Origin: Lytechinus pictus
Lineage: Eukaryota
NCBI RefSeq assembly: GCF_037042905.1
Contig: NC_087251.1
Span: 25,856,001-25,920,000, forward strand
Direction of reading: 5' to 3'
DNA: 64,000 bases
A program made the translations under genes and the position numbers. Shown one piece after another: positions 758-62,350 of this stretch (position 1 is the stretch's first letter; every line of letters starts with the position of its first letter). The notes below the pieces were generated by a model that did no database searches, had not been told where the DNA came from, and worked only from the letters and a program-made list of their open reading frames with translations.

Positions 758-1130
758 ATGACTTCCTTATGTTGTTTTTCGCGTTGGAGCGGCAGAAGAA
801 CACAATCACAATTTCCATCACCTCTTCAATCAAAATCCACACACTCGTGTCATTACAGATTGCACATTTTTGTGGTGTTATATATTCTCATGAATGTACT
901 CGTTGGTTTCGGGCAACAAGCATGGGCCAGTGACACTTGTCCGACGGAGTACCATAATTGTGACTGGGAATGCCCAAGCTTGCCCGATAGATGTCCGGGC
1001 GAGAGGAACTTAGCAGACCCATGTGGATGTTGTACAGTATGTATGAGGCAAGCCGGTGAAATGTGCAGTATTCCAAAAAGACCGTGTGATGCTGGTTTTG
1101 AATTAAATTGTGTCAATGGAAGGTGCAAAG
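758..1130 (+). CDS. Exon 1: extended signal peptide + IGFBP N-terminal domain
   Basis: Hydrophobic LHIFVVLYILMNVLVGFG, then a likely AWA|SD cleavage site. 12-Cys domain with DPCGCCTVC (IGFBP GCGCCxxC-type motif). Donor AAG|GTATGT at 1131, phase 1. Start codon uncertain (725/758). Confidence 0.88.
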
Positions 1131-39109: not shown

Positions 39110-39144
<35 letters not shown>

Positions 39145-39236
39145 CGTTGTCGTCGTAGTGGCTGTAGTCATCGCCGCCGCTGTATAGTAGTAGTAGTAGT
39201 AGTAGTAGAAGCAGTAGTAGAAGAAGAAGAAGTAGA

Positions 39237-39279
<43 letters not shown>

Positions 39280-39412
39280 ATAGTAGTAGTAGTAGTAGTA
39301 GTCGTTGTCGTCGTAGTGGCTGTAGTCATCGCCGCCGCTGTATAGTAGTAGTAGTAGTAGTAGTAGAAGCAGTAGTAGAAGAAGAAGAAGTAGTAGTAGT
39401 AGTAGTAGTAGA

Positions 39413-39468
<56 letters not shown>

Positions 39469-42400
39469 CAGTAGTAGAGGTACAGGTAGTAGTAGTCGTT
39501 GTAGTATTAGTAGTAGCTGCAGTATAGAGGTAGAAGTACTAGTAGTCGTTGTAGTAGTAGTAGTAGTCGCAGTACTAGAAATAGTTGCAAGCATTATGTG
39601 GCTGTATCATCTTGCTTATGGTTAAAACGTTTCATTAATTTTTATAAAGATAATATCAATGAATATACCCAGGGAAAAACATGTTTGGTCACACCCCTTA
39701 ATTTTGGACGATTGACTAAAAATATAGGCCTTCGTTTTCAAGCAAAAAAGCCTAGCACCGGCGATTTGAAACAAGATTGAGTTGCCGCATACCAGGCACC
39801 CAATGTGGGTTTCACATGAAATAAGGGTCATTGCGAGCATGCAGAGGTCGCGACAAAATGGAGAATCAACGACGAGAGAGTTAATTTTTCAATCATCGTC
39901 AATACACCCTGTTGGTACTCTTATTTCATCCAGCGTGTCCCAGTCCATGCGTTCTGTGTTAATTTTCCTCCCTAAGGTGTCGGGATATGTGAGCCTTCAA
40001 AGTATCCCAAAGAATTGTCTCTTCCCATGCCACTTGAAGTGTCGATCTCTACTCTCTTACCACATTTCTGCTTATTGCTTCCACGGTGCGCGCTGTCGTA
40101 CTTTCAGAAATGCGATCGTGATTGACGAGATGAAAGCGCGCGAATGATAAGCGTGTGATGGTCACTTGATTCTATTCACCATCCCGATGTTAAAAGAACC
40201 AACAGGTGACACATAATAATAATTGTTTGCCAGTTTCATATTTATCTATTCACATTACCTCTCAGATTATTTCCTTCTCTGTACTCTATAAAGTTAGGCT
40301 ACCCCCTCCCAATCCTCACGACTGATCATGACGTCATTAAAACGGTATTGATATAAAATTGTGACTGCGACTGCTTAATACATTGTACCCGACGTATAGG
40401 GCCGAGGTATCTTAGGAAGCATGTGAATCTCTAACAATGTCATAATCACTAAAAATTGAATTTTTCTACGCAAACCAAATTACTATAGAAATGTATTGAT
40501 TTATGGGCATTACTATATATATATATATACATATTGCCCCTCCCACCCCTCCATACCCGCTCGCACACTCACAAACAAACACACACACCCACACTGTTCA
40601 CTGCGAAAACTTCGGTGTTAATTTAAGACCAGTCCGGAATCTATATATATGACCACACCAGAGAAGTGTTAAAACAACACCGATTTGAAATTAAATCGAT
40701 GCTGTTTTAACACAAATTGGTGTTGTATAAACGACTATCTGGAATTAGTCCAAAACCAAACCGATGTTGTTTTAACACTTCTCTGATGTGGTCATACATA
40801 GATTCCGGACTGGTGTTAAATTAACACAGCAGTTTTTGAAGTGTTCACCCACACTGTTTACCTTTGGAAGGCACTGTCTTGTGAAACTGGCTATCTTTCG
40901 GATATGACATTGACCCCCCCCCCCCCCCTCCTTCATTTTAACTCCTGCACTGGTTGGGTATGGGCATGGTTTGTAAAAGTCATGATAATTATGTTCCTAT
41001 TCTTTGACTATCTCTTAAAATATTAATGGATTTTATAGATCAAAATACCTCTTTTGATTTTTATATTCTAAAAAAAAAAAAAAAAAATCTTTTTTTCCTG
41101 ATCCAGGCTGGAAACAAGACACAGACATCCATCAGAAATTTGAAAGAGAGCACAGACTATTATTTCCGGGTGAGCTATCACATTCCAGGGCGTGGTGTAA
41201 GATTCGAAGGGCATCTTTCGGAAGTAGCATTACATCGGACAGGAACACCTGGTGAGATATTATTGGGTCAATCTTCGGGTTATTTCACCTATGCCTTTAC
41301 TATCTATGCCGTATTTATAGATCTTGAAATTGTCGCTATACAGTAAAATACAAAATATGACAAAAGGTAATTAGAATTTACGGCCAGTTTTGGCCTTGGC
41401 GTTCCCTTTCAGTGCCTTTCCAAGAAATACCGCCTGTACACACAGAAGAGCCCCAAATCATCCTTTTCCGAAGTGCAAAAGGGAATTTTCTTTTCTTTTG
41501 AGTATTTATCAGATGCATTCTTCAAATCTCATGAGTATCTTTTGGAAGATGAAATATTCGAAAAATGCTGCATGGGTAAATGAATAAATAGACAAAAAAA
41601 AAGCTTGTCTTATTTAGATATGAAGTTTGGCTAACGTAATTACAATAATTATGACCATCTAGTTAGAGAATACGCAAGTTTTACTTAGGATATATCTTAA
41701 TCCTCATTATTGTTAGGATATATCTTAATTCTCATTATAGTAGTCTGACAGAGTAAATAAGGTTTCCATAAAATCGGAAATTATGGCAGGAGTGGTTTCT
41801 AAAAGTATCTTTAATTATAAGTCTGGATTATTGGTAAAGGTAAGTGCATTTTTAGGTTCTTTATTCTTCTTCTGTTTTTGTGGATGTATTTTGTAGTGTC
41901 CGGCGATTAGGCACGTATTGGACCGATGTAACACGATAAGTAGATACTCCGTTGGTTTACATCGTTTTGCTCTTAAAAAACCTTGTTATTAATTTTGGTT
42001 TCTGCTCATTGATAGGCCTTCTTAATCTTCATCTTAGTCACTAGTGTACCTACGGGGGGCAGAGGGGGCAGACTGCCCCCCCCTGACGAATCACAACCCA
42101 TGCAAGGGACATATCCCTGCCCCCCTTACGATTTTTGAAGACCTTTTTTTTATTTTTATTTTTTTGCTTGCTTGTCAATTTTTTTCTGGTACGAAATCCT
42201 TTATTTGTGATTAAAGACCTTTTTTTTCTCTCTTTTTTTTTGCTTGTTAAATTTTTTGGCGGACGAGATCCTTTATTTGTGGTTGAAGACCTTTTTTTTT
42301 TTTTGCTTGTCAAATTTTTGGGCGGACGAATTTGCCCCCCCTGTGGAAAATCCTAGGTACGCCACTGATCTTAGCATAATGTATACATTCTAACATGATT

Positions 42401-47067: not shown

Positions 47068-47098
<31 letters not shown>

Positions 47099-50000: not shown

Positions 50001-53000
50001 CCCAATCCATGTCATCCAGTTATGAGATCAATGTTTTCCAATGAGCCAACTTAGTTTAAATCAGAAAACCGACATTTTTTTTACCCTTGGTCTGGTCCAC
50101 CCTTTTCACAATACACATCCAGCTCCTCTTGGTGGCTGTGAACATGACAACAGACACTATGATGAAGGTATGACCATCCATCAATCCTGTGACTCGGTCT
50201 GTGATTGTCTTCTGGGTTCATGGATCTGCAGACCAAGGGGTTGTCCTCCTGCACCCGATGTACGTATCAGCCCTGTTAACTGCAGAGAGGAACCCCACCC
50301 AGACGACCCAGAGTGTTGCACCATGATCAAGTGTGATGAGGGTTCAAACGACTCCATACAACCAGGTAGGAAATTAGCAAGTTCATGCTGCACACATTTA
50401 AACAATCAACTGATAAATAAAGAAGATTTTCTCTTTCCCTGAAAGTTGGCTAAAAGTTTCATAAGTGGAACTACAAAGATATTGTACATGAAATGATTGT
50501 GTCTGATATGGATTGAACAATTTTACTAAGTTCAATGCTCTTTAACAAAAATGTCAGAGAAGCGATACCTATAAACATAAGAATACTTTATTTTACAATA
50601 TATCACCCATTGCATTAGTATATCTTTTTTTTTCAAGTACAGAATTCATTACTGGTTTCTGTACCACTGAGGTCATGGAATATGTAAGAATGCTTTTTCT
50701 CTAGATAGCTTCATTATTTGGCCAAAAATGAAACTTTGGTCTTGTCTGATTTACTTGTGGGTGAACATCTACCCAGCTAGGATGGAGGCAATGATATTAA
50801 CTTTGCACACTTGATAATCCATCTATCTTTCATCTCTGATGATTCCTTATGTTTCTGAACATTCATAATCGTATGTATGGCATCACTCATGTACATTTCA
50901 TTTCAATGTTTCCCAATTAATTCAACCCACCAGCTGACTGCATTGATGGTGGTGTGCTCCGAGTCCATGGGGAGACCTACTACCGTGGCTGTGACGAAGT
51001 GTGCTTCTGTGACAATGGGGTATCAGACTGCACCCGTAGGTGCCCTGACCCAGGCCAGATGATTCCAGACCTCCAGACATGCCCACACCCTACACTCCTG
51101 GAACCACCAGAGGGAGAATGCTGCCCCCATTGGTCATGTCCACCTCCTCGTAAGTAGAACAGAAAGTACATTCCTTGACTGAAAGCTCCATGGGAAAATA
51201 AAGCTTGAAGTTAGATTACAAATAGATGTGATAATCTATAGCTTCTTATCTAAAAAATAAGTCAAATCTAAAATTCTTTTAGGATTGATTTAATTTTGTC
51301 CAAATCTGTAAATTCATCAATTAAAGGATTACTTGTAAAACTATCTCATAAAGTTTTTCCAAAGTGTATATCAGCATCATTTAAAGTAATTATGAATAAG
51401 TATGCTATTTTTACATTTCGAAACCACTGCACGTAGATCCAAAGATGCCTTTGAAAACTTGTACTGCACTAGAGTCTTTTTGAATGAAAAATTTAGGTAA
51501 ATTTCCATGCTTGATTATGTAGCAATATGACATTACTTATCTAATGCTCCATTGATGCATTTGATGAAATATTTCAGTAGCTATAATTGAGAAAAAATAA
51601 TATGTTTTCCTTTTAAAAATTTAGCAAACTCATGTGAACTGAACGGCAACACCTATGAAGATGGCGAGTTTTTTGACGTCGATTGCAGCATGCGATGTCA
51701 ATGTCTTAGCGGTAGTGTTCGATGTGTCCCTCGATGTCCGGTCAGCTTTGCTGTTTCCACATTGAACTGTCCGAATCCAAAGATGGTTCAGCTACCAGGG
51801 GAGTGCTGTCTGCAGTGGGAATGTGAACAGCCAGGTAGTAATGAATTACTTTAAAAGATTAATCAATTTTTTGTTTGACCGATCAAATACCATGGCATGT
51901 TGTGTATGCTTGAGTTGTTATTACCAACAACATGTAATCACTACATCAAAGATATGGTATTCTTAATACCCTTTTGTATTTCATGGTGGCAGCGGTGGGA
52001 TTCATATATATTTATATACGGCAGACCGGATAAAATGTGTGATTACTTCTTAATCACACAAAGCTATGCGCACCAGAATCGGTAGACTAGCTTATCCGGG
52101 GTAATATAGGAGCGCCTTGAGCACCTAGCAAGGTGGATACGTGCGCTATACAAATCCTTTATTATAATGTTATGCTCTTGAAAATTGAATTAAATTCATT
52201 GTCATTCTAAAGTATCAGAGCCATTTATTACATTGATAGTTTATGAATGTCTTAGGAATTCAACTTCAATATGTTTATTTCACTACAACACTTACTCTTT
52301 ATAGGCCTACTTGGTAGATTAGGCCTCAACTCCAAAGGAAAGAGCTCTCAGAAGTTTCTCAAAAGTTGCAACTGTAGGTGCAGACACAACTAAATCTTGA
52401 AAATATTCAATGTAAGGGTTTATTTATGGATCAGTGTTAAGCAATAAAATTTAAATGGTTTGTGATGGATATTGTTAGTCATATTATATTGATGGTTTGA
52501 TCATGGAGCTATTGGTTTGATGAGTTGAATTTCAGGGTTTGAATAGAATAATTGCTCAATTGATTTCCTCTCTGTATTTGAATATTGTTTTCTTTTCTGT
52601 GGCTTTTGAATGTCCTCATTCGGAAATCAGCGGCTCCTGGATGCCTGTACCATGGTGCCTCAGGGAACATCAGCATGGTCGATGGTGACTGGATAAATGA
52701 AGACTGTGACAGCCGTTGCCTCTGTGACCGAGGTACCCTGATGTGTATGCCAATGTGTGCTGAACCATCACCACCATCACCAACTCCACTTTGTCCTCAT
52801 CCTGTAGTTACCAAGCTGAGAGAAACAGACTGCTGTCGGGTGATTGCTTGTCATGACCCAAAAGGAGGTATGTTTCAGGCCCCATATCTTTGGCAAGCCG
52901 TGCCTCAAATATAAGGTGTTGCTTTGCAAACAACCTCTAAGTCCATTGTGAATTAGTAGTTATCGATTCAAGCATTTCCAATGCAGCAAATTGTTTTGAA

Positions 53001-56000
53001 TCAACAAATTGTTGTTTGGTTTTGTTTTTTAATGTATCAAATATTCTTCTCCCTGCAGAGAGTCCTAATGTGGTCCAGGATGTCTCAGTTCTGGCCTTCA
53101 ACATGACAGCCATTACAGTTGGGTTCACACCACCTGCCAACACTGACCTGAGGGCAATGACTGATGGATACATCATCTACTACACCAATAGATCAGAAAA
53201 TGTCACGCTTGATGATTGGACAGCACTGAGAAAGGTACGTTAAGGTGAAATTGTCTGTTAAATGGACACTCTCCTTATTAACTTAACATCAATGATTATC
53301 AGGGGCATTAGAGATTATGGCAACCATATTAGTAGTGAAAGGACCTAGTCATTTAGATGTTCAGGTTGTATCCCACCACTGCCACCATATTAGTAATGAA
53401 AGGATCTCTAGTCATTCAAATGGTTTGTGTAAGTATCCCTCCACTGCCATCATATGAGGAAAGGATCTCCAGTCATTTAGATGGTTTGTGTTAGTATCCC
53501 ACTGCTGCCACCATATTAGTAATGAAAGGTTCTTTAGTCATTTAGATGATTTGGGTTGTATCCAACTGTTGCCACCATATGAATGAAAGCACCTCTAGTC
53601 ATTTAGATGGTTTGGGTTGTATCACACTGCTGCCATCATATTAGTAATGAAAGGATCTCTATTATTTAGATGATTTGGGTTGTATCCCACTGCTGCCACC
53701 ATATTAATGAAAGCATCTCTAGTCATTTAGATGGTTTGTGTTAGTATCCCACTGCTGCAACCATATTAATGAAAGCATCTCTTGTCATTTAGATGATTTG
53801 GGTTGTATCCCACTGCTGCCACCATATTAATGAAAGCATCTCTAGTCATTTAGATGGTTTGGGTTGTATCACACTGCTGCCATCATATTAGTAATGAAAG
53901 GATCTCTATTATTTAGATGATTTGGGTTGTATCCCACTGCTGCCACCATATTAATGAAAGCATCTCTAGTCATTTAGATGGTTTTGGGTTGTATCACACT
54001 GCTGCCACCATATTAATGAAAGCATCTCTAGTCATTTAGATGATTTTGGGTTGTAACCCACTGCTGCCACCATATTAGTAATTAAAGGATCTCTGGTATT
54101 TAGATGGTTTGGGTTGTATCCCGCTGCTGCCACCATATTAGTAATGAAAGGATCTCTATTATTAAGATGATTTGGGTTGTATTCCTCTGCTGCCTCCATA
54201 TTAGTAATGAAAGGATCTCTATTCATTTAGATTGTTTGGGTTGTATCCCACTGCTGCCACAATATTAATAAAAGCATATCTAGTCATTTAGATGGTTTGG
54301 ATTGTATCCCACTGCTGCCACCATATAATGAAAGGATTTCTATTATTTAGATGTTTTGGGTTGTATCCCACCACTGCCACCATATTAGTAATGAAAGGAT
54401 CTCTAGTCATTTAGATGGTTTGTTTTAGTATTCACATCTGCCAACCTATTAGTAATGAAAGGATATCTCATTTAGATGGTTTGGATTGTATCCCACTGCT
54501 GCCACCATATTAGTAATGAAAGGATCTCTATCATTTAGATGTTTGGGTTGTATCCCACTGCTGCCACCATATTTATGAAAGCATCTTTAGTCATTCAAAT
54601 GGTTTGTGTAAGTATCCCACTGCTGCCACCATATTAGTAATGAAAGGATCTCTGGTATATAGATGATTTGGGTTGTATTCCTCTGCTGCCACCATATTAG
54701 TAATGAAAGGATCTCTATTATTTAGATGGTTTGGATTGTATCCCACTGCTGCCACCATATAATGAAAGGATCTCTATTATTTAGATGTTTTGGGTTGTAT
54801 CCCACCACTGCCACCATATTAGTAATGAAGGGATCTCTAGTCATTTAGATGGTTTGTTTTAGTATTCACATCTGCCACCCTATTAGTAATGAAAGGATCT
54901 CTCATTTAGATGATTTGGGTTGTATCCCACTGCTGCCACCATATTAGTAATGAAAGGATCTCTATCGTTTAGATGGTTTAGATTGTATCCCACTGCTGCC
55001 ACCATATAATGAAAGGATCTCTATTATTTAGATGTTTTGGGTTGTATCCCACCACTGCCACCATATTAGGAATGAAGGGATCTCTAGTCATTTAGATGGT
55101 TTGTTTTAGTATTCACATCTGCCACCCTATTAGTAATGAAAGGATCTCTCATTTAGATGGTTGGGTTGTATCCCACTGCTGCCACCATATTAGTAATGAA
55201 AGGATCTCTATCGTTTAGATGTTTGGGTTGTATCCCACTGCTGCCACCATATTAGTAATGAATATATGGATCTCTGTTATTTAGATGGTGATTGTTGTAT
55301 CCCACCACTGCCACCATAATAGTATTGAAAGGATCTCTAGTCATTTCGATGGTTTGAGTTCTATCCCACTTCTGCAACCATATTAGTAATAAAAGGATCA
55401 GTTAAGGTGATAAAATATATCATACATTATAGTAATGAAATGAAGTGATGTCCAACTGTTAAATGTGGTTATAAAGGCCCTGTCACATCATTCCGTGCAA
55501 GTCTTGCATGTGACTTGCGGGTAACTATATTTGCTGGTACCCGCAAGTCGCCCGCAGGTCACCTGCATTGTCAGTATCTCGCACGTATCTCAAATGCAGT
55601 TTCCCACAGAAGCGCACAGAATCTGATTTGCATGCAGGAAAGGTTTGAACATGCTCAAAACTTTGTTAAGGATGAATTGCGTGCAATCACCCATAACTCA
55701 CTCACAAGGATTGCATGGAACGATGTGACAACTCCTTAGCATACATTTTCAATTTCAAAATGCATTCAACATATCAGTAGGATACCTGTTTAGGAGGTAC
55801 TGAAATGAATGTTTTATTTGTTCTTTTTCTTCTCAGGATTTTCCCCTCGGTGTTGAGATTCGTGGCCACATCATGATGGAGATAAATAACCTGTTGCAAG
55901 AGACAACATATTACCTAAAGATCAGAGTTAGTATACCGGATAATATGGACTCCCAGCCGGCCCCACGATGGCCCAACACTCTACCAAGTACTGATATCTT

Positions 56001-59000
56001 CCTTGTCACTACATCTGAAAATGCACGTAAGTATACTCACATCTGGCAATGAGGAGATATGGTCACAAACCAGTATGGCACTGCAAATCACAGAGTGGTA
56101 AAAGCTGTCTTATGAGCATAATTTACATATAAATTGTCACTAAAATCAGAATACTTATGAAAAACTGTCATATTCAAGGTGGTATTTGATGTAATGATCT
56201 GTTTTCCTCTTCCTCCAATGCTTTAAATGTTGCATTGTATTTACATCAACATTAATATACAGTCATTGGCCCATCAATTGTCATTCATTCCTGCATATAG
56301 AATCACTTTGTTTAATCTGAAATGACTTTATCTTTGTCTAACCATGCTTGAAAATTTGAAATAACATACTTTGCTTTCCTATTCTTATTACAGCTCAACC
56401 ATGTACTTATAAGGGTATTGTTTACCAACATGGTGAGCATTTTAACGATGGATGTGAGTCTGCCTGTGAGTGCCGAGCTGGAAGAACTATCTGCCGTGAA
56501 CTCTGCCCCAAGACAGAAGTAATTGCATCTGAACTATGCCCAAACCCTAGACAGGTTATCATCAAGGGTGAATGCTGTCCAGAGTGGCAATGTTTTCCAA
56601 ATGGTAGGTAGTTCATATTTTCTGGTACTGTTTCAGTAAAAAATTGAAATTAACACTTATTCAAATCAGAGTAATCATATGCCAAGTGAAAGAAAGTTTT
56701 GCTATAAGGCTATTAAAACTTTTCAAAATGTAAACCCCAAAAACGAATTATTTCAGATTGAAAGCAAAAAGGGGGAAATATCATATTTAGGCATGTGATT
56801 AAATTCCTCTCATCTGAGCACCCATTAATTAATTTTCTTGGTTGAAATTTTAGCTGATAAAGATGTAATACAATAAAATGCCTTAGTTGTGCGGGTTATA
56901 ACTTATCCTGACAAGTGACTTCTAGTATAAGAGTTTAAAGATAAGAGATGATGTTGACTCTTTAAAGTTAACTTGTTCTATCAATGTATAGCACCTGGGA
57001 TTTAAAATGGAAATTCTATATGAGAAAGAGTGTAACGTCATATTAATAGTGAAAACAATCATATTGATAGAATACCAATATCATTGGAATATACATAGTT
57101 AATATGAATAGAAATTATGTCATAAGAGCCAGTATTGGTATAAAGCAAGTCTTACTTTTTAAGACATTTTTGTTTTGTGGAAATTACACTGGTAATTCCG
57201 GTAATTTCCCTTGTAATTCCATTACTTATTATATCCTGCATGTAAGTTGTTTTTTAATGAAAGATTTATAAAGCAGATATATTTTCGAGCATAAAATGGT
57301 AAGGGAGAAAAGCTGGGTACAAACAGCATACAAACACTAAAAAAGTTTGTAACTGACTTATATTACCATGCAAATATACAATTACCCAAAAGTACATCTT
57401 AATCATAATCCTGCATTTTTTTAGATGGTGATTGCAGCCATAGCAACAAGATCTATCAGAATGGAATGGAATGGAGGGAAGGATGCGACCTCAGATGTCG
57501 CTGTCATGATGGGACAGTTTCGTGTCGCAACGTGTGTAACAGCACAACAACCATGCCCAAACAGCTTGAGTGTCCATACCCTGTACAGGTCCGTGTAGCA
57601 GATACCTGTTGCCTGGAATGGGTGTGCTATGATTGTGAGTAAATTCAAAGAATTGTCCCAAAAAATTATCCTATATATTTGCCAATACACTTTTTTATAG
57701 ATTTTTCAATCGTATTTGAAAATTGCTTGCATTCTGGCATACCAGCCAGAAAATCACTTGTGTTTAGAAAGTTGCAGAAATTGATTTTGAACTACACAGC
57801 CACCCATCATTTCTTGTTCCAAATCTATTATTCTTTTAACTGGTATCATTCATATTACAGTTCCTCCAAGCAACAACTTAGCCAGCAAGCCTCTCCCTCT
57901 GCCACTTTCGTTTTTCCTAATCAACATTTCTGTAACCAACACATCAGCTAGAAGTGCGACTATTAGGTGGCCTGGACTGACAGATCTGCAGAGACAGTAT
58001 ATCGGACAGTTCCGACTCAAGTACAGAGAGCTTACCTATGGTGGCAAACCATGGAACAGTACAGTGTCTTTCAGGTAAAGTATGGGTTTTGCAACCTTAC
58101 GCTCTAGGATAGTTTGCACATCAAAACACAAAAGAATTTAAAGAGAATATTGAGCGAAAATGCTGTTGAACAAAAATATTACATCAACCACATATCACAG
58201 ACGTGAATAAGTTTTTTCACATTCTTTACAACCTCAAAATCTCAATCATGGATTAATCCAAGAAATGTTAATTTGACTGGATCGTCTTGGATGGTTAATT
58301 AGTACATGTTTTATTTCATGATGCCCTCCACAAATTGTTCCAGTGACAATTTTACTGTAAAAAAAAATTGCATCAAGTCTAGTGTCTGCAGCCACAACAT
58401 TTTGCCATCAATTGCTCCCATCCTAGCTGCTCTTATGGCAAATGCCATGAACTTAATTTGCTACAATAACATTTTACTGTGAACAAACATTCTTTGACAT
58501 CAAATGCTTTGACCCTTATATTATCTGACCACATAGTATCAGACACTGGCTGCCATGAGCACCAACATATAGATTATTGTTGCTGCTACCACAATAGGTT
58601 GAGCACCAAGTGCTCTTACCACTGTTACTAAAGCCACAATATCTTGCTGGTCAAATGTTCTGGCCATAGAAACTTCACCACACAAGTTTGCAGACAGTCA
58701 GTGCTCTGACCACTGTTGCTTTTATTGTGTCATTCAGGCACTAGCTGTATCACCAGTTACCTTGATATCATGATCTTGAAAGCTATTGCTTCACTAACAG
58801 CAGCTTCGACCACAAGTTTTGGACACCCTTTACTTTGACCACTGATTGCATAATCTCAGATACTAATTATTATGAGGATTGAGGAGCACCAAGAATACTG
58901 TTTTATGGGGAAATGAAGGCTGGGTGATTTTCAGGTTGAATGAAAGTTGCATTCTGTCTTAAAGTAATGGTAAGTGAAATATGGTGCATTAATGACAAGA

Positions 59001-62000
59001 AAAGAAATTTCAATGAAATCCAATAAATTTTAAAAAAATTATTGCCTCAATTTTGTTTAGGCCTGAGCTGCGAAAGTATACCATCTTAGACTTACGTCCA
59101 GCTAGGAGCTATGTTGTACAGCTTGTTGTTTTGGTTGGCTCATCAAGTGCTCAGGTCGGCATCCATCTACAGACGAGTAAAATTGAAGTCGATACACTCT
59201 GGCTACCATGTAAGTGATCACTACTACTTCAGCATTAAAAGGGGAAAACTGTATTTTGTCAAGATTTTATAAAAGTAGGATAGTCAACTCTCCTAACATT
59301 GTTCTACTCATTTAATACTAATGTATTTATACCCTATTTGTGAACAAGGGGATAGACCTTTTGACTTGATGATATTTTATATGTGTTACTCATTTTATAA
59401 TGTTGTTATTGTAAATAAATAGGTATTGTAACTGTTTTCACTATACTTTATACACAGTTTATGGAACCACTCAATGTTAATATTTTAAATTGAAGGATAA
59501 TAATATTTGTTAATTCAAAAATGTATGTAACAAAATATTCAAGATTCAGATTATTATTGCATACTACATGTATTATCGTAAAGATTTTAAAGATTAAAAA
59601 GCTATTATAATAATAATTCAATCCAATATATGCACCATTTTATGTATTCATACAGTAATACACTACAGTTTTAATCGTAAGATAATGTTCAAATGATGGG
59701 ACAAATTTCCTTGTTTCCACCATTTTTCCCAGATTCATTTATTTTAGATCTAAATTCATTCTTATTCTTTCCTCAGCCATCCCATACCCAGGAGATGCAT
59801 TTGACATTGAGATCTATGAAGTCACAATGACCACAGCATCCATTAGGTGGTCGGCATTACCAAGGGAAATCATTTCTCACATAGTTGGCTGGCGACTCAT
59901 GGTTGTATCAAAGGTAATTGGAATATTCAAGTGTATAACAATATTATGGATACATTCATTTCAATAGGTGTGGGATACTGTTGAGGTTTTTAGTTTGATA
60001 CAGTTTTTACTTCAGCTGTGTCTATACATGAATGCATATATCCATTTAATATTTGTTTCCATCTTCTGATTTATTTTGCTTTTCATATGTTTTTGTGACT
60101 TGAAAATAAGAAAACTGTGCCATAATCATTTTCTTATTTCTTTTAAAAAATATTTTATTGCATTTTATAAGTTTCTCATCTCTTTCCACCCTTTATTAAA
60201 CATCTTTGATTCGTAGTATCACATTAGTATGAAAGAGTAAGACACATTTTAAAGTTTTGGATCATATATGTTTTATCTTTTGGTGGTTTAAGGATCGATC
60301 TCTCACATTAAGTAATGTATTATATTTATTGTATTTATATTCTGTAATACATGATAGTTTAATATTATTTATCCACCAATTTCAAATGTATTTTTTATAT
60401 TGATTAGTACAAGTTCTCTTCAAAATGTGTGAGTGGGTGAGGGTGTGGTTTTTTTTTGTAAATCGTCTGTCATCAATCACTCAATGAGCAGTGGAACTGC
60501 CATGGTCAGGTGGTCTTTATACCTGATCCATCACATGAAAGTCCAGGGTTCAGTCCCCAAAACTAGGGCCCTTGAACAAGGCTTTTCATCTACAATACTC
60601 TTTTATAATAAATTGCATCATATGAAACTGTACGTTTGGCATTGTGAATGGTAGTAACAAGTGTATGAATATATGGAGTGTGTGAGGGTGGTTAATAGTC
60701 ATTAGGGATGGTGTTTATGGGTGTGAATAAATCGAGTGTGAGCATGCATGAGTGCATGAATGTCAGTGGGGGTACATGTGTGGGTGTGGGTGTGTGAGTA
60801 AGTTTTAATTGGATAACAATCCTGTTACACCAGAATGTCATCATCTTCAACCAAATGGTTACCAAAGAAAAAGAAAAGTGTATTTTATCTTGTGATATAT
60901 TGGAAATATAACCTGAACTTGAAACCACATATTTCTTTCCCACACTAGGACGAAAGCCGAGTATTGGAATCTGAGATAGTAGAACGTTCAGCTCTGTCAT
61001 ACATAATTCGCAACTTGACAGAGGGCGAAACATATCACATACAGCTCCTTGGTCTTTGGGACAATGACACTGTCACTCGAGAAGTACGATCCAAGACTGT
61101 ATCAATTACCACCCACAAACTGTTTAATAGTAAGTCATTTGATATCATTTATTTGTAGCATTCACATATGAGCAGCAACTGAATTTCAAGTTGTTTGTTC
61201 TTTCTTTTTTCTTTGCCTATGCCTTGTGAAATTATCTAAGTTTGTTTCCTCACTTTTATAAATTTTTGCTTTTCTTTGATGATGCAAAAATCATTTGACG
61301 TTTTCCAAAAGATAATAATAATTTTCATTCCCAAGTAAAAGTACAGATTTTTTTTTTTTTTACAAACAAACCCTATGTACGGGAATCAATATCTGGTTCA
61401 TACATAGTCAAGTCTAATTTTCTCCCACCATTATTAACATTTTTCTGCAGCTCAGCATAAACGAGGACTATCATCGCCCATGTCAGCGATTATCGGTACG
61501 ATCATCGCCCTCTGTGTCTTCCTGGTGGTCGTTATTGCTTTCATCTATATGAGGATTAAGAAGAGACATTCAGAGAGGTATGATGTGTATGGCAGAAATG
61601 CAACGATTAACTTCAGACCATCCAACTATGAACACGTCTATGAAGGGACACACGAAAATGATGTAAGTCTCTATGTTAGTTTTAATATTTCTCTTTAAAG
61701 GGGGAATTCACCCCAACATTAAGTTGGTAATTATAAAAGGAGATAAACATAAACATATTAACAAATATTTGGCAAAAATCCATCAAAGAATTACTAATTT
61801 ATCAATGGATCAGAATTAGAGTTCTAGTATTTTGAGGTCAGCTGCTTATTATTTGGTTAAAAAAGGAACATGAATTGGTCCAAATTCTTAATTCAGTTGA
61901 GTTGTTATCATTCATTCTCCCCTCCGATTACATTTGTTTACTACAATTATTAATATTTTTTTCAGATGGGCTGCAATATTCTGTTTCAAATCATTCTCAA

Positions 62001-62350
62001 TGCTGCATGAGGCATTGTATATTTATGAAAATTGATGGTAAGGTATTGAAGAATTCTAATGAAAAAATATATACTTTAAGTCTAGTAAAGTCAAGTTAGA
62101 TAACAGTTGTCTTCTTTCTTTTCTTATAATTAATTGAGGTATAAACCTTGGATATTTCTGTTTATCGATCACATATTCCATATGTTATTTCTGGGCCTTA
62201 TAAATTCATGATTTTGATTAATCATTTATCACATTTCTCTCTTATGTTTCATTTCTCATTCAGGAACAGCACAGCGAAAGACGGTTCAGCGATGCAGGTC
62301 TGTTAGAAAGTGGTAGAAGAGACAGTGAAGCTGAACTATTGGACATTTGA
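758..62350 (+). CDS. Spliced 17-exon gene for a type I membrane protein, SP-IGFBP-FN3-(VWC)4-FN3-(VWC)2-FN3-FN3-TM-tail, ~1116 aa (Sas-like / CCN-module-bearing receptor)
   Basis: Exons joined manually. All 16 introns are GT..AG with matching phases. Summed CDS is 3351 nt (1117 codons including TGA) with no internal stop. An alternative in-frame ATG lies at 725. Extra exons hidden in the 37-kb intron 1 cannot be excluded. Confidence 0.88.
4023..4379 (+). mobile_element. tRNA-derived SINE
   Basis: A box (TGGTGTAGTGG) and B-box-like GTTTGAATCCC. Central block CTCGACCCAGGTG..AATGGGTACC shared with other copies. (ATT)n tail. Confidence 0.85.
4561..4820 (+). mobile_element. tRNA-derived SINE
   Basis: A box TGGTCTATTGG, B box GGTTCGATTCC, same central block, AT-rich tail. 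Confidence 0.85.
4939..5242. mobile_element. MITE, PIF/Harbinger-like
   Basis: Imperfect TIR GGCCTGTATTCTG / CAGAATAAGGGCC with TAA-like flanks. Confidence 0.55.
6276..8831. mobile_element. Foldback-type non-autonomous DNA transposon with ~700-bp modular TIRs (TGT..ACA ends)
   Basis: Ends TGTTGCACCCACAAATGTAATAA / TTATTACATTTGTGGGTGTAACA. About 7 copies of CCCACAAATGTAATAA per end. Inner repeats of TTTTCCAGACCCGGTTA. Inserted in a G-run. Confidence 0.85.
9663..9788. mobile_element. Short MITE
   Basis: TIR CAGGGGCCCGTAACAC / GTGTTACGGGACCCTG. Confidence 0.65.
11663..11967 (+). mobile_element. hAT-like MITE, family A (internally rearranged copy)
   Basis: Ends CACTGGCGTACC / GGTACGCTAGTG. Flanks GAGGGGGG / GAGGGAGG (8 bp, 1 mismatch). 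Homologous to the copies at 38855 and 42039. Confidence 0.75.
12170..12366. repeat. (CTA)n / (CTG)n compound microsatellite
   Basis: Directly visible trinucleotide runs. Confidence 0.9.
12372..12565. mobile_element. MITE with CAC..GTG ends and TA flanks (CACTA/EnSpm-like)
   Basis: TA|CACTCTAAAAA ... TTTTTAGAGTG|TA, with internal inverted TTTACCCAATATTGG motifs. Confidence 0.7.
14634..14805. mobile_element. MITE with 5-bp TSD
   Basis: TIR CAGGGGCCGCGGAA / TTCCGCGGCCCCTG, flanked by TGTAA on both sides. Confidence 0.78.
15495..15958. repeat. CpG-rich repeat with an internal ~132-bp tandem duplication (probable DNA transposon remnant)
   Basis: Two diverged copies of a unit rich in GAGACGTC/GACGTCTC starting ~15532 and ~15664. 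Confidence 0.55.
18026..18920 (+). mobile_element. Non-autonomous hAT element, family B
   Basis: Ends CAGTGGCGTA / TACGCCACTG. Perfect 8-bp TSD ATTGTGTA. Internal GCGAGCGCGAAGCGCGAGCTG repeats. Confidence 0.88.
19886..20487. mobile_element. Non-autonomous TTAA-targeting element with AGG..CCT ends (Kolobok-like)
   Basis: TTAA|AGG...CTTCGGGCTGAAAAT ... ATTTTCAGCCCAGAG...CCT|TTGA, plus subterminal inverted GAAAATTTCATCAAAATCGGA. Confidence 0.72.
21576..22571 (-). mobile_element. Non-autonomous hAT element, family B (opposite orientation)
   Basis: Reverse-complement homology to 18026-18920. Perfect 8-bp TSD ACGAAAAC. Ends CAGTGG / CCACTG, with a deletion just inside the left end. Confidence 0.85.
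23759..24057. mobile_element. MITE with CAC..GTG ends and TA flanks
   Basis: TA|CACTGAAA...GGTGTTA ... TAACACC...TTTGCAGTG|TA. Confidence 0.55.
24910..25198. mobile_element. MITE (hAT-like ends)
   Basis: TIR ATGGCCGTCA / TGACGGCCAT with G-run/C-run subterminal tracts. TSD imperfect. Confidence 0.55.
25737..26512 (+). mobile_element. Non-autonomous Tc1/mariner-like element
   Basis: TA|CAGTGCGGATAAAAAAA..TTTACACTT ... AAGTGTAAACTTTTTTTGATACGCACTG|TA. Second copy at 63377. Confidence 0.85.
26558..26852 (+). mobile_element. tRNA-derived SINE, apparently full length
   Basis: A box TGGCCCAGTGG, B box GGTTCGAATCCC, shared central block, (ATT)n tail, possible TSD ATGCTT. Confidence 0.88.
27415..27577. 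mobile_element. Palindromic MITE (Harbinger-like)
   Basis: TACCTCAGTCACATTT...TACGGCGGCCG / CGGCCGCCGTA...AAATGTGACTGAGGTA. Confidence 0.75.
28242..28661. mobile_element. MITE (Harbinger-like)
   Basis: TIR AGCCCCCATCACACTTATTC / GAATAAGTGTGATGGGGGCT with ATA/TTA flanks. Confidence 0.78.
35490..35670. mobile_element. MITE with CAC..GTG ends and TA flanks
   Basis: TA|CACTCTTAAAACGTTCGGCAACATACTGTCCACAC / GTGTGGACAGTATGTTGCCCAACATTTTCAAGAGTG|TA. Confidence 0.78.
38539..38699 (+). CDS. Exon 2: FN3 domain 1, first half
   Basis: Pyrimidine tract + TAG acceptor. KMNLQVRSSTANSINLSWNSF...GHYVVYYTT...SWPGQIE. Donor GAG|GTTTGT; phase 1 to 0. Not in the ORF track. Confidence 0.88.
38778..39580. repeat. 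(TAG)n microsatellite tract interrupted by a MITE, with an internal duplicated block
   Basis: Long GTA/GAA runs. The block GTCGTTGTCGTCGTAGTGGCTGTAGTCATCGCCGCCGCTGTA occurs twice. Confidence 0.9.
38855..39111 (+). mobile_element. hAT-like MITE, family A
   Basis: CAGTGGCGTACCT / AGGTACGCTAGTG, inserted into the (TAG)n tract. Confidence 0.82.
40599..40843. mobile_element. Near-palindromic MITE with CAC..GTG ends
   Basis: Long TIR including GTGTTAATTTAA-ACCAGTCCGGAATCTAT...ATGACCACA and its reverse complement. TT flanks. Confidence 0.75.
41107..41251 (+). CDS. Exon 3: FN3 domain 1, second half
   Basis: CAG acceptor. AGNKTQTSIRNLKESTDYYFRVSY (FN3 L-x-x-x-T-x-Y-x-F-R-V motif). Donor G|GTGAGA; phase 0 to 1. 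Confidence 0.92.
42039..42367 (-). mobile_element. hAT-like MITE, family A (reverse orientation)
   Basis: Reverse complement of the 38855 copy with an extra internal unit. TSD ATCTTAGT / ATCTTAGC. Confidence 0.85.
44394..48310. mobile_element. 3.9-kb near-palindromic non-autonomous DNA transposon, TAG..CTA ends, 3-bp TSD AAG (Academ-like)
   Basis: AAG|TAGTAGACTTGTTAA ... TTAACAAGTCTACTA|AAG. Arms ~44394-46293 and ~46506-48310 are reverse complements along their length. Spacer ~210 bp. No transposase ORF. Confidence 0.85.
48314..48650. repeat. GA-rich low-complexity polypurine tract
   Basis: Almost only A/G on the + strand. Continues the purine tract left of the 44394 element. Confidence 0.85.
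50123..50365 (+). CDS. Exon 4: VWC domain 1
   Basis: 10 Cys: CEHDNRHYDEG...CDSVCDCLLGSWICRPRGCP...NC...ECCTMIKC. 243 nt, phase 1-1, donor CAG|GTAGGA. Confidence 0.93.
50934..51149 (+). CDS. Exon 5: VWC domain 2
   Basis: 10 Cys: CIDGGVLRVHGETYYRGCDEVCFC...TCPHP...GECCPHWSC. 216 nt, phase 1-1, donor GTAAGT. Confidence 0.93.
51625..51834 (+). CDS. Exon 6: VWC domain 3 (strongly CCN-like)
   Basis: CELNGNTYEDGEFFDVDCSMRCQCLSGSVRCVPRCP...NCPNPKMVQLPGECCLQWECEQP. 210 nt, phase 1-1. Not in the ORF track. Confidence 0.93.
52061..52168 (+). mobile_element. 5'-truncated SINE (3' part only)
   Basis: Matches the 3' end of the 4561 SINE (GCGCACC.GAATCG.TAGAC..AGCAAGGTGGATACGTGCGCTATA). Confidence 0.75.
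52631..52867 (+). CDS. Exon 7: VWC domain 4
   Basis: 10 Cys: CLYHG...DCDSRCLCDRGTLMCMPMC...LCPHP...DCCRVIAC. 237 nt, phase 1-1, donor GAG|GTATGT. Confidence 0.92.
53059..53234 (+). CDS. Exon 8: FN3 domain 2, first half
   Basis: SPNVVQDVSVLAFNMTAITVGFTPP...DGYIIYYT. CTGCAG acceptor, donor AAG|GTACGT; phase 1 to 0. Confidence 0.92.
53320..55399. repeat. Intronic minisatellite, ~61-64-bp unit, roughly 33 copies
   Basis: Unit consensus CCACCATATTAGTAATGAAAGGATCTCTAGTCATTTAGATGGTTTGGGTTGTATCCCACTGCTG, head-to-tail with no unique spacers. Confidence 0.95.
55475..55737. mobile_element. MITE (Harbinger-like), degenerate
   Basis: AGGCCCTGTCACATCATTCCGTGCAA / TTGCATGGAACGATGTGACAACTCCT. Internal TTTGAACATGCTCAAAA motif similar to the 28242 element. 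Confidence 0.6.
55837..56026 (+). CDS. Exon 9: FN3 domain 2, second half
   Basis: DFPLGVEIRGHIMMEINNLLQETTYYLKIRVS. Strong pyrimidine tract + CAG, donor GTAAGT; phase 0 to 1. Confidence 0.91.
56394..56603 (+). CDS. Exon 10: VWC domain 5
   Basis: CTYKGIVYQHGEHFNDGCESACECRAGRTICRELCP...LCPNPRQVIIKGECCPEWQC. 210 nt, phase 1-1. Confidence 0.93.
57425..57634 (+). CDS. Exon 11: VWC domain 6
   Basis: CSHSNKIYQNGMEWREGCDLRCRCHDGTVSCRNVC...ECPYPVQVRVADTCCLEWVC. 210 nt, phase 1-1, donor GTGAGT. Confidence 0.93.
57861..58074 (+). CDS. Exon 12: FN3 domain 3, first half
   Basis: ...NISVTNTSARSATIRWPGL...IGQFRLKYREL...W. Donor CAG|GTAAAG; phase 1 to 2. Confidence 0.9.
59061..59209 (+). CDS. Exon 13: FN3 domain 3, second half
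   Basis: PELRKYTILDLRPARSYVVQLVV (FN3 L-x-P-x-x-x-Y motif). TTTAG acceptor, GTAAGT donor; phase 2 to 1. Confidence 0.91.
59777..59913 (+). CDS. Exon 14: FN3 domain 4, first half
   Basis: IPYPGDAFDIEIYEVTMTTASIRWSAL...IVGWRLMVVSK. Donor AAG|GTAATT; phase 1 to 0. Confidence 0.9.
60490..60595 (+). mobile_element. Highly degenerate SINE head
   Basis: TGGTCAGGTGG ... GGGTTCAGTCCC ... CCCTTGAACAAGGC resembles A box, B box and the start of the core. Confidence 0.35.
60949..61129 (+). CDS. Exon 15: FN3 domain 4, second half
   Basis: SALSYIIRNLTEGETYHIQLLGLW...SKTVSITT. Donor GTAAGT; phase 0 to 1. Confidence 0.91.
61451..61662 (+). CDS. Exon 16: transmembrane helix + proximal cytoplasmic tail
   Basis: AIIGTIIALCVFLVVVIAFIYM followed by the basic stop-transfer RIKKR and a tyrosine-rich tail. 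Donor GAT|GTAAGT; phase 1 to 0. Confidence 0.92.
62264..62350 (+). CDS. Exon 17: C-terminal cytoplasmic tail and stop
   Basis: Long pyrimidine tract + CAG. EQHSERRFSDAGLLESGRRDSEAELLDI*. Phase 0 matches exon 16. Confidence 0.85.
   Translation, partial: EQHSERRFSDAGLLESGRRDSEAELLDI

Follow-up and report, generated by a model that had tools for sequence, protein, structure and literature searches.

In this work, the plus strand of a 64,000-nucleotide stretch of Lytechinus pictus DNA (the window) was found to carry what is very probably one gene for a type I membrane glycoprotein of about 1116 amino acids, an ambulacrarian member of the Stranded at second (Sas) family for which we propose a role as a surface ligand or co-receptor. 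As judged from sequence comparison, what is new here is a deuterostome relative of a known receptor ligand, Sas, that carries an IGFBP-like head. In the fly, Sas serves the R3-type receptor tyrosine phosphatase Ptp10D as a ligand, both during axon guidance and in tumour-suppressive cell competition, and also targets extracellular vesicles (PMC10289811). It consists of an N-terminal region that is unique, four VWFC domains, an optional 345-amino-acid EVT region, three FN-III domains and a 37-amino-acid intracellular domain, whose YDNPSY sequence, of the NPxY type, is the binding site of the Numb PTB domain and of dArc1 (PMC10289811). The same article, published in eLife in 2023, remarks that no ortholog of Sas is obvious in mammals (PMC10289811). 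Judged by titles, the literature on 'stranded at second' contained no non-arthropod orthologue, and a literature search returned nothing that paired 'epidermal cell surface receptor' with 'sea urchin'. When 'stranded at second' was combined with 'ortholog' or 'IGFBP', the matches listed held no mention of 'stranded at second'.

The gene extends from 758 to 62350 in 17 exons. Each of its introns is bounded by GT..AG, phases are consistent throughout (trailing plus leading bases give 0 or 3), and the spliced coding sequence of 3351 nt has one stop codon, at its end, giving 1116 amino acids. The product contains, in this order, a signal peptide, an IGFBP-type domain, one FN3 domain, four VWC, one FN3, two VWC, two FN3, a transmembrane segment (TM) and a tail of 66 amino acids. 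Both the 17-exon gene and this domain order had been proposed in the original prediction; splice sites, phases and the single open coding sequence bear out the former, and Pfam, hydropathy, the cysteine pattern and a model of VWC4 the latter. The predicted tail is likewise present, with 66 instead of the 65 residues given for it. The features are as follows.

356..757, plus strand: transcribed 5' leader, seen in contigs X15 record 9 (356-1133) and X1 record 1 (403-1133); alternative ATG at 725-727.
758..1130, plus strand: exon 1, start codon, long signal peptide and 12-Cys IGFBP-type N-domain; phase 1 donor AAAG/gtatgt; Pfam IGFBP 34.3 bits, hydropathy, AF2.
38539..38699, plus strand: exon 2, first half of FN3a, holding the start Met of the public model; 2 leading bases fit the 1 trailing base of exon 1; own-genome match, query residues 1-54.
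41107..41251, plus strand: exon 3, second half of FN3a; fn3 17.2 bits (sub-threshold), splice sites and phases; full FN3 on P0001 residues 2-75.
50123..50365, plus strand: exon 4, VWC1; VWC 19.7 bits (below cut-off); 10 Cys in family spacing; 68% identity across echinoderm classes.
50934..51149, plus strand: exon 5, VWC2; VWC 29.3 bits; 10 Cys; own-genome match of D. melanogaster Sas, E 0.0017.
51625..51834, plus strand: exon 6, VWC3, CCN-like; VWC 36.2 bits; short matches of proteins with CCN architecture at profile positions 348-420.
52631..52867, plus strand: exon 7, VWC4; 10 Cys; AF2 pLDDT 86.4, CCN3 VWC 5nb8; best own-genome match of D. melanogaster Sas, E 4.4e-5.
53059..53234, plus strand: exon 8, first half of FN3b; fn3 16.6 bits; splice sites and phases.
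55837..56026, plus strand: exon 9, second half of FN3b; splice sites and phases; collinear with P0001.
56394..56603, plus strand: exon 10, VWC5; VWC 34.4 bits; 10 Cys; best own-genome match of the Aplysia family member, E 1.1e-8.
57425..57634, plus strand: exon 11, VWC6; VWC 30.7 bits; 10 Cys.
57861..58074, plus strand: exon 12, linker and first half of FN3c; splice sites and phases; collinear with P0001.
59061..59209, plus strand: exon 13, second half of FN3c; splice sites and phases; FN3c module 189 bits on P0001.
59777..59913, plus strand: exon 14, first half of FN3d; splice sites and phases.
60949..61129, plus strand: exon 15, second half of FN3d; splice sites and phases; FN3c-FN3d aligns with D. 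melanogaster Sas residues 1068-1315, E 6e-10.
61451..61662, plus strand: exon 16, stalk, TM (aa 1030-1050) and proximal tail (YDVY, NFRPSNYEHVY); hydropathy 3.26; 100% identity to P0001.
62264..62350, plus strand: exon 17, distal tail (RRDSEAELLDI) and stop (62348-62350); acceptor ttctcattcag/GAACAG, 0 leading bases.

Residues 127-1116 of the product are 99.5% identical over 990 amino acids to 'uncharacterized protein LOC129264662 [Lytechinus pictus]' from nr (P0001). With P0001 as query, all 16 matches in the animal's own genome fell within the window, and hence no second copy was seen. Neither tRNA genes (0) nor Rfam families (0) were found when the window was scanned. A prokaryotic or viral source was ruled out, since the gene is a spliced animal one. 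At 725, 11 codons 5' of the start at 758, lies an in-frame ATG that is conserved with the model of another urchin (P0012/P0047). Both ATG codons share one open frame, and the residues encoded between them are similar to the N-terminus of P0012/P0047; the upstream ATG may be the true start, and the product would then have 1127 amino acids.

Domain assignment relied on a Pfam run on 15 stop-to-stop frames, with cut-offs of 28 bits for IGFBP and 27.6 bits for VWC. IGFBP was called in exon 1 and VWC in four frames (exons 5, 6, 10 and 11), at the scores listed above; the VWC score of exon 4 stayed under the cut-off, and exon 7 gave no VWC call, with TILa at 22.1 bits also below cut-off. Exactly 10 cysteines with near-identical spacing are found in each of the six VWC exons. 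Two half-domain exons reached sub-threshold fn3 scores, in exon 3 because that exon holds only half a domain, and the five of 15 frames in which Pfam found nothing were all FN3 halves. On full-length P0001, Pfam gave VWC with 91.6 bits in four stretches and fn3 with 83.5 bits in four stretches.

Structural models were built for two modules. The AF2 model of the exon-7 module (pLDDT 86.4) matched the CCN3 VWC domain 5nb8 with a probability of 1.00 and TM 0.60/0.65. The exon-1 domain has 12 cysteines and the CGCCxxC motif (PCGCCTVC), and the nearest structures to its AF2 model (pLDDT 78.7) were the HtrA1 N-domain (probability 0.99), spider SIBD-1 and IGFBP4, 7, 1 and 3; nine of its ten top PDB rows are IGFBP-type, all of them weak with E of at least 0.014. 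Compared by sequence with the PDB, the head matched the HtrA1 N-domain only (E 0.014). Since Foldseek E-values were at least 0.0014 for both models, the fold assignments depend on ranking and cysteine pattern rather than on significance.

Hydropathy places an N-terminal h-region at about residues 31-55, ending in AWA/SD, behind an n-region that is unusually long for a signal peptide at 30-45 amino acids, and a single TM peak of 3.26 at residues 1031-1049. The layout is that of a type I protein, with a hydropathy-based signal peptide, a large ectodomain of 11 modules with 13 extracellular sequons, one TM and the 66-residue tail. VWC domains are combined with membrane-proximal FN3 repeats, as the last two of the four FN3 domains lie next to the TM.

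The public 990-residue model P0001 starts at the exon 2 methionine (MNLQVRSS) and is without exon 1, which would have to be joined to exon 2 across an intron of 37.4 kb. Both points speak for exon 1 lying outside the gene, either as a separate small secreted IGFBP-like gene or because the receptor has another first exon and starts near exon 2. A 155-residue unspliced read-through product of the homologous exon, deposited for the other urchin (P0047), points the same way. We nevertheless consider this arrangement very unlikely. The 990-residue model has no signal peptide despite 60 cysteines in its six VWC domains and 13 extracellular N-glycosylation sequons. The phase 1 donor of exon 1 fits the two leading bases of exon 2, and the junction C-[KR]-G-K-MNLQV is identical in Diadema. 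The IGFBP module precedes FN3a in seven of nine aligned echinoderm proteins, being absent from the other two because these are N-terminally short models. The same join is found in hemichordate P0011 and in P0012, the exon 1-6 product of the other urchin (87% identical), and in reduced form in arthropod, tardigrade and mollusc relatives.

Transcript contigs bear on the same junction. Four runs (X1, X15, X19 and X20), none of them on record as RNA, were compared with positions 1-12000 of the window only, a range that does not reach exon 2. Contig X1 record 1, from a run whose type is only guessed ('RNA?'), follows the plus strand from 403 to 1133 and then continues with 27 letters off-genome; X15 record 9 (type guessed as '?') covers 356-1133 of the plus strand. 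The contig letters GTA at 1131-1133 are ambiguous, being also the first three letters of exon 2. X1 departs from the genomic sequence right at the donor site, with the GTA that also opens exon 2 coming next; its overrun beyond that is known by its length of 27 letters. Depth of X1 was 6.3 and 5.3 over 401-1200 and 0 over 1201-4000. X15 also covers intron 1 at a depth of 3.9, and the raw RNA runs were nearly empty on exon 1 (X19 depth 0.59, X20 depth 0). We hence regard the link between exons 1 and 2 as supported, by the conserved junction, by the transcript contigs and by the need for a signal peptide.

Relatives outside the echinoderms were collected with a profile of nine echinoderm proteins, which gave 877 matches at E <= 0.001 among 1.84 billion representatives. 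Names were looked up for 30 of the 150 listed representatives, namely 1 hemichordate, 1 tardigrade, 3 chelicerates, 1 myriapod, 10 insects, 9 molluscs, 4 unnamed and 1 teleost CYR61-like protein. Eight of the ten insect proteins are named '(putative) epidermal cell surface receptor' in NCBI/UniRef and the tardigrade protein is 'Epidermal cell surface receptor' in UniRef; among the listed matches, proteins called 'putative epidermal cell surface receptor' are the best outside Ambulacraria. This name can be equated with Sas, because the relatives of the Musca protein include D. melanogaster 'Stranded at second, isoform C', whose tail holds YDNPSY.

The original prediction had proposed a reciprocal search against Sas, and its outcome favours homology in both directions. 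By BLASTP, the product matched D. melanogaster Sas collinearly with E-values of 1.35e-20 (residues 460-990 against 536-1136) and 6e-10 (813-1056 against 1068-1315). The last two VWCs and the last two FN3s of fly Sas best match echinoderm VWC5/6 and FN3c/d, in the same order. Similarity to insect Sas amounts to 22-29% identity and runs over VWC and FN3 modules, which are promiscuous. In the reverse direction, D. melanogaster Sas was compared with the urchin's own genome of 812 Mb, in a search that scores only its best candidates. Both of its matches at E <= 0.01 fell here, in exons 7 (4.4e-5) and 5 (0.0017), and both are weak. The Aplysia family member likewise had its best own-genome match in this gene, at exon 10 (E 1.1e-8). 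A tick Sas-family protein gave no own-genome match at E <= 0.01, which is uninformative, since a distant protein is matched here exon by exon. The urchin product and the characterised D. melanogaster Sas are thus reciprocal best matches, at weak E-values and over promiscuous modules, and we take the gene as an ambulacrarian Sas-family member and probable orthologue.

Like fly Sas, the urchin protein is a type I membrane protein with several 10-Cys VWC domains, after which come FN3 repeats, a single TM and a short tail. Unlike it, the urchin protein has an IGFBP-type head, an extra FN3 domain and six VWC interleaved with FN3, and no EVT-like insert; its tail is 66 residues long without NPxY, in contrast to the 37-residue intracellular domain with YDNPSY of the fly. 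The two forms are bridged by non-insect Sas relatives from tick, horseshoe crab, spider, myriapod and tardigrade, which combine an IGFBP-like head with an NPxY tail. An HMM of the echinoderm IGFBP module matched tardigrade, spider, horseshoe crab and tick proteins near their N-termini with 17-23 bits, the Tachypleus protein has Pfam IGFBP at 20.7 bits, and the tick protein is collinear over IGFBP and FN3a (E 6e-14). As the head followed by FN3 occurs in chelicerate, myriapod and tardigrade members, the IGFBP-FN3 head looks ancestral in the Sas family and lost in insects. The original prediction, which knew of no IGFBP domain in Sas, had to be revised on this point.

Alternatively, the protein could belong with CRIM1 or the kielin/chordin/CCN group of BMP regulators and have gained FN3 domains, its likeness to Sas then reflecting shared domain types. 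CRIM1 has an IGFBP-type head, six VWC domains, antistasin-type repeats between VWC2 and VWC3, and a TM, but no FN3. The CCN proteins (CCN1-6, IGFBP-VWC-TSP1-CT) are secreted, with one VWC, TSP1 and a cystine knot. By this description, head, six VWC and single TM are common to CRIM1 and the urchin protein. Some mollusc relatives are automatically named 'cysteine-rich motor neuron 1 protein-like', 'Kielin/chordin protein' or 'connective tissue growth factor'. Ten CCN-like proteins also match the echinoderm IGFBP HMM, at 15.8-35.3 bits; Pfam finds IGFBP (40.1-49.1 bits) and above-cut-off VWC in all of them, and TSP1_CCN and/or Cys_knot in four. In the full echinoderm profile, CCN-like proteins match positions of about 348-420, corresponding to VWC3. 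Together with the VWC4 model, which is closest to a CCN3 domain, this agrees with the CCN-like modules of the original prediction, as head, VWC3 and VWC4 all resemble CCN proteins.

Against such an origin, the urchin protein has four FN3 domains and, unlike CRIM1, no antistasin-type repeats. CRIM1 was rejected because no antistasin family turned up when Pfam was run on the exons, P0001 and P0003, and CCN because Pfam found no TSP1_CCN or Cys_knot and a TM is present. The top listed full-length collinear matches outside Ambulacraria are of the Sas family and have in common with the urchin protein the junction of head and FN3, the pair of FN3s at the end and a related motif in the juxtamembrane tail. 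In the urchin genome, fly Sas has no match outside this gene (E <= 0.01). We hence hold a CRIM1- or CCN-type origin to be very improbable. The earlier view that the protein fits none of CRIM1, CCN and Sas is right for the first two and does not stand for Sas, with which the gene is homologous.

With classical IGFBPs the urchin head shares the 12-Cys N-domain with a GCGCC-type motif, the Pfam IGFBP call and the IGFBP-type fold neighbours. Unlike HtrA1, IGFBP7 and the classical IGFBPs, the protein has no Kazal, Ig or thyroglobulin-1 partner domain; for thyroglobulin-1, Pfam found none in the exons or P0001. Classical IGFBPs have their IGF-binding loop between the last cysteines. In the urchin head this segment is short, and IGF binding by the head therefore appears doubtful.

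Proteins of the same architecture, all uncharacterised, are found in all five echinoderm classes and in a hemichordate. Between the echinoderm classes, mean pairwise identity is 51-68% for each ectodomain module, highest in VWC1, and 45% for the cytoplasmic tail, where YDVY-type tyrosines are invariant. The L. pictus tail (...NFRPSNYEHVY...) is without NPxY and without the YDNPSY of the fly; tails of other echinoderms read NYD-x3-[ST]YE. Among 50 Sas-like representatives, [YF][DE]NP[ST]Y occurs in 28 and FENK in 7. The echinoderm tail features a conserved Y-E-[HQ]-[VIM], of the YxxPhi type, and R-R-x-S followed by LL, with R-R-x-S and the following L invariant in all nine echinoderm proteins. 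YxxPhi and R-R-x-S/LL, in the absence of NPxY, suggest that the tail might serve clathrin-adaptor sorting under a basophilic kinase rather than Numb or Arc binding.

A correct gene model for a protein with a chiefly structural or adhesive part in the apical matrix, and with no signalling partner, is in our estimate very unlikely. Such a role would suit the long extracellular rod with its 11 modules and 13 sequons, and what fly Sas is best known for is marking the apical surface and its tracheal phenotypes (PMC10289811), but the fly protein has defined partners in Ptp10D, Numb and dArc1 (PMC10289811), and the conservation of the tail across echinoderm classes, with its invariant tyrosines and R-R-x-S...L, argues for regulated trafficking or signalling.

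Returning to the Sas-family receptor that we favour, the urchin protein would, like Sas with its apical position in fly epithelia, be displayed on the cell surface; through the rod that its Cys-rich and FN3 modules form, it could act in trans or in cis as a ligand or co-receptor. By analogy with the fly, the most likely candidate partner is an R3-type receptor tyrosine phosphatase, an assignment that we make tentatively. BMP/TGF-beta-type ligands, bound via the CCN/chordin-type VWC modules, come next as a conceivable choice. The short head, similar to HtrA1 and IGFBP7, seems a less likely candidate for high-affinity binding of insulin-like peptides, which would be rather unexpected. Literature searches turned up neither binding nor expression-pattern data on deuterostome members.

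In its layout, the urchin protein looks like one that keeps the ancestral bilaterian form of the Sas family, and insects appear to have replaced the IGFBP-FN3 head by a low-complexity N-terminal region. We may go further and speculate, with little confidence, that Sas did not arise in arthropods but is an ancient bilaterian receptor, originally with a CCN/IGFBP-type growth-factor-binding head on a VWC/FN3 body, as kept in urchins and hemichordates. The Sas-R3 phosphatase axis would then have been coupled at first to the capture of insulin-like or BMP-type ligands; insects would have lost the head and chordates the gene, and the same IGFBP-VWC cassette could also have given rise to the secreted CCN proteins.

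For L. pictus, the analysis corrects a public gene model from which the exon for signal peptide and IGFBP domain is missing. For the family, it adds a clear Sas relative in deuterostomes, found in five echinoderm classes and a hemichordate, and points to an older layout with an IGFBP-like head. Lytechinus is a genetically tractable deuterostome in which one may now ask whether the pairing of Sas with receptor tyrosine phosphatases is ancient, and what the head binds.

Splice sites listed around every open frame of the window, AT-rich animal DNA (31-42% G+C) whose plus-strand open frames encode Cys-rich and FN3-like peptides, were chained into a gene of 17 exons.

Exons of the gene (window coordinates)
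Exon 1, 758-1130, plus strand
Exon 2, 38539-38699, plus strand
Exon 3, 41107-41251, plus strand
Exon 4, 50123-50365, plus strand
Exon 5, 50934-51149, plus strand
Exon 6, 51625-51834, plus strand
Exon 7, 52631-52867, plus strand
Exon 8, 53059-53234, plus strand
Exon 9, 55837-56026, plus strand
Exon 10, 56394-56603, plus strand
Exon 11, 57425-57634, plus strand
Exon 12, 57861-58074, plus strand
Exon 13, 59061-59209, plus strand
Exon 14, 59777-59913, plus strand
Exon 15, 60949-61129, plus strand
Exon 16, 61451-61662, plus strand
Exon 17, 62264-62350, plus strand

All introns are bounded by GT..AG and the frame is kept across every junction, giving a CDS of 3351 nt with a single stop at its end (1116 aa). 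Introns between modules are of phase 1; each VWC module occupies one exon and each FN3 module two. This is the usual layout of shuffled extracellular modules. The true start may be an in-frame ATG at 725-727, 11 codons 5' of 758 (1127 aa), since the 11 residues that this would add are conserved at the N-terminus of a model from another urchin (P0012/P0047).

Repeats were noticed in introns 1, 2 and 8. In intron 1, a repeat at 4020-4700 reaches RNA-run depths in the thousands versus 5-11 on exon 1, with internal joints that go back or skip and loose ends of tRNA-like appearance. ARAGORN found no tRNA gene in the window, and the repeat is probably a dispersed SINE-type element. The same intron holds a foldback-type element (6282-8805) with further inverted pairs inside; 41-50-bp sub-repeats make up its outer arms, 6283-6447 and 8642-8805, which show 100% complementarity. 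Long low-complexity TAG-type trinucleotide arrays (12152-12400 in intron 1, 39107-39578 in intron 2; about 158 copies, with a 158-bp higher-order unit at 97%) give rise, on both strands, to long open frames that are spurious. Intron 8 contains a 2.1-kb minisatellite (53323-55399) in which a 61-bp unit recurs about 33 times with 82% matches; higher-order periods are also present, at 247 and 434 bp.

The original prediction of a signal peptide followed by IGFBP-FN3-(VWC)4-FN3-(VWC)2-FN3-FN3, a transmembrane segment and a short tail was borne out by Pfam, Cys spacing, predicted folds and hydropathy. When 15 stop-to-stop frames were scanned singly with Pfam, exon 1 scored 34.3 bits for IGFBP (cut-off 28) and four frames exceeded the VWC cut-off of 27.6 bits (29.3, 36.2, 34.4 and 30.7). 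Exon 4 remained under it (VWC, 19.7 bits), the sole match of exon 7 was TILa (22.1 bits), fn3 was sub-threshold in two half-domain exons, and five frames with FN3 halves had no Pfam match. Scanned at full length, the public 990-aa model P0001 ('uncharacterized protein LOC129264662 [Lytechinus pictus]') gave VWC at 91.6 bits and fn3 at 83.5 bits, each over four stretches. All six VWC exons encode exactly 10 Cys, spaced 16(20)-3-1-6-3(4)-10..12-10..12-0-4. Hydropathy showed an N-terminal h-region ending AWA|SD, a single transmembrane peak at aa 1031-1049 and a tail of 66 aa.

The two least certain modules, exon 7 and the mature exon-1 domain, were folded from an alignment of echinoderm and hemichordate rows. 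The exon-7 model (pLDDT 86.4) matched best the VWC domain of CCN3 (5nb8; probability 1.00, TM 0.60/0.65, E 0.0014), followed by the collagen IIA VWC. For the exon-1 model (pLDDT 78.7), the best structures were the HtrA1 N-domain, spider SIBD-1 and IGFBP4, 7, 1 and 3; nine of the ten top rows were IGFBP-type, every one at E >= 0.014. By sequence, too, the HtrA1 N-domain is the nearest solved chain to this head (E 0.014), which has 12 Cys and contains PCGCCTVC. The proposed likeness to CCN modules also held, as CCN-type proteins match the IGFBP module and VWC3: ten proteins matched the echinoderm IGFBP-module HMM at 15.8-35.3 bits, each of them exceeding the Pfam cut-offs for IGFBP and VWC and four also having TSP1_CCN and/or Cys_knot, and the same ten align to echinoderm profile positions about 348-420, i.e., VWC3.

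Over residues 127-1116, our model and P0001 are 99.5% identical, differing at 5 of 990 positions; P0001 was one of three nr proteins at E <= 0.01 (8 candidates) for the exon 16 product, to which it is 100% identical. All 16 of its matches in the urchin's own assembly (812 Mb) fall within the window. As P0001 starts at the Met of exon 2 (38539), without signal peptide and IGFBP domain, it looks N-terminally truncated, missing exon 1 (758-1130). We consider it very likely that exon 1 belongs to the gene continuing at exon 2. The phases are compatible (1 + 2), and the Diadema orthologue, used as query of a word-indexed search, gave nine proteins at E <= 0.001 (3886 candidates; itself included) from all five echinoderm classes. 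The IGFBP module directly precedes FN3a in seven of the nine, with a C-[KR]-G|K-MNLQV-type junction; in the remaining two the model is short at the N-terminus. The hemichordate Glandiceps protein shows the same order, and P0012 (471 aa, another urchin) is 87% identical over aa 1-450, with exons 1 to 6 joined likewise. Among sequencing runs X1 and X15, whose type is a guess, a contig of X15 (record 9) aligns to 356-1133 on the plus strand, covering exon 1, and one of X1 (record 1) to 403-1133 (plus strand), followed by 27 letters off the genome. That the alignments end at 1133, not 1130, fits a next exon starting GTA, as exon 2 does. Over 401-1200, X1 has depths of 6.3 and 5.3, against 0 from 1201 to 4000. 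Speaking against the link, X15 also covers intron 1 at depth 3.9, and raw RNA runs were nearly absent from exon 1 (depth 0.59 and 0 in two runs).

A profile of nine echinoderm proteins, scored against 1.84 billion representatives, gave 877 matches at E <= 0.001, of which 265 reached <= 1e-10 and 36 reached <= 1e-30. Names were looked up for 30 of 150 listed matches.

Looked-up matches to the echinoderm profile
Hemichordate, 1: 858 bits, nearly full length
Tardigrade, 1: UniRef 'Epidermal cell surface receptor'
Chelicerates, 3: one cluster called 'putative epidermal cell surface receptor'
Myriapod, 1
Insects, 10: eight carry the name '(putative) epidermal cell surface receptor' in NCBI or UniRef
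Molluscs, 9: auto-names vary, one cluster member being 'Epidermal cell surface receptor'
Teleost, 1: CYR61-like protein
Without name, 4

'Epidermal cell surface receptor' is Sas (Stranded at second): among the relatives of the Musca protein are entries called 'stranded at second transmembrane protein' as well as D. melanogaster 'Stranded at second, isoform C'. The tail of isoform C ends ...AAYDNPSYKVEIQQETMNL, in agreement with the 37-aa ICD and its YDNPSY motif described for Sas in passages of PMC10289811. The window product matched fly Sas at 1.35e-20 (aa 460-990 versus 536-1136), and FN3c-FN3d-TM matched residues 1068-1315 at 6e-10. In the reverse search, two places in the urchin genome matched fly Sas at E <= 0.01, and each is an exon of this gene (exon 7, 4.4e-5; exon 5, 0.0017). 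An Aplysia family member hit exon 10 best (1.1e-8), and the tick protein had no match at E <= 0.01 in the urchin's own genome. Two weaker FN3 matches of the Aplysia protein on another contig outside the window (G000:C1:19358467-19392710; 1.7e-4 and 0.009) presumably mark an unrelated FN3 gene. Judged from sequence, the urchin gene is a probable orthologue of Sas, with low similarity that lies on common module types.

The original prediction knew of no IGFBP domain in Sas; this did not hold for its relatives. The echinoderm IGFBP-module HMM matched N-terminal segments of the tardigrade and spider proteins at 23.5 and 23.2 bits, of the hemichordate protein at 22.1, and of the horseshoe crab and tick proteins at 19.4 and 17.3. 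Pfam IGFBP scored 24.7 bits in the hemichordate and 20.7 bits, below cut-off, in Tachypleus, and the tick 'putative epidermal cell surface receptor' is collinear with Diadema across head and FN3a (E 6e-14). By eye, mollusc members seem to show a reduced head (..GCCP...G..C...CD.ELGF.C...G.C.G) with FN3 immediately after; also by eye, myriapod and tardigrade proteins share C.CC..C...PCD..FGL.C, and three insect N-termini are of low complexity and lack any head-like Cys pattern. Because the head is present in non-insect relatives and its pattern missing in these insect N-termini, the head-FN3 unit looks ancestral for the Sas family and lost in insects. Such a loss would account for the 'unique N-terminal region' described for fly Sas in the fly literature.

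In 50 listed representatives that have two or more VWC-type and 1-5 FN3-type modules, the tail carried [YF][DE]NP[ST]Y in 28, FENK in seven (molluscs and hemichordate) and other sequences in seven, several being near-variants, e.g., FENRIF and YDNPAF; eight were fragments without TM. Whereas fly Sas has NPxY in its tail, the urchin tail lacks it. Echinoderms instead share N-[YF]-D-x3-[ST]-Y-E-[HQ]-[VIM] (NFRPSNYEHVY in the urchin), with YDVY, a YxxPhi-type YE[HQ][VIM] and a terminal R-R-x-S...LL conserved. Mean identity between echinoderm classes is 45% in the tail versus 51-68% in ectodomain modules. Judged by its motifs, the tail may serve adaptor-mediated sorting, with a basophilic-kinase site.

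The gene is conserved, single-copy and expressed, and its product is a type I glycoprotein belonging to the Sas family. The presumed role of the protein is that of a cell-surface ligand or co-receptor. Since fly Sas binds Ptp10D, according to passages of PMC10289811, PMC13385740 and PMC10628440, an R3 RPTP would by homology be the first candidate partner; by module type, BMP-class ligands would be the second, and IGF-type binding by the short head ranks as the least likely candidate role. A passage of PMC10289811 links the EVT region of fly Sas to apical and vesicle targeting; judging by its linker lengths, the urchin protein lacks such a region.

We found no paper joining 'epidermal cell surface receptor' with 'sea urchin', and among the matches listed none tying 'stranded at second' to 'ortholog' or 'IGFBP'; by title, the listed 'stranded at second' literature was all Drosophila or general reviews. 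The gene is already annotated, though uncharacterised and with a truncated public model. What is new is a deuterostome member of the Sas family that bears what looks to be its ancestral IGFBP head.
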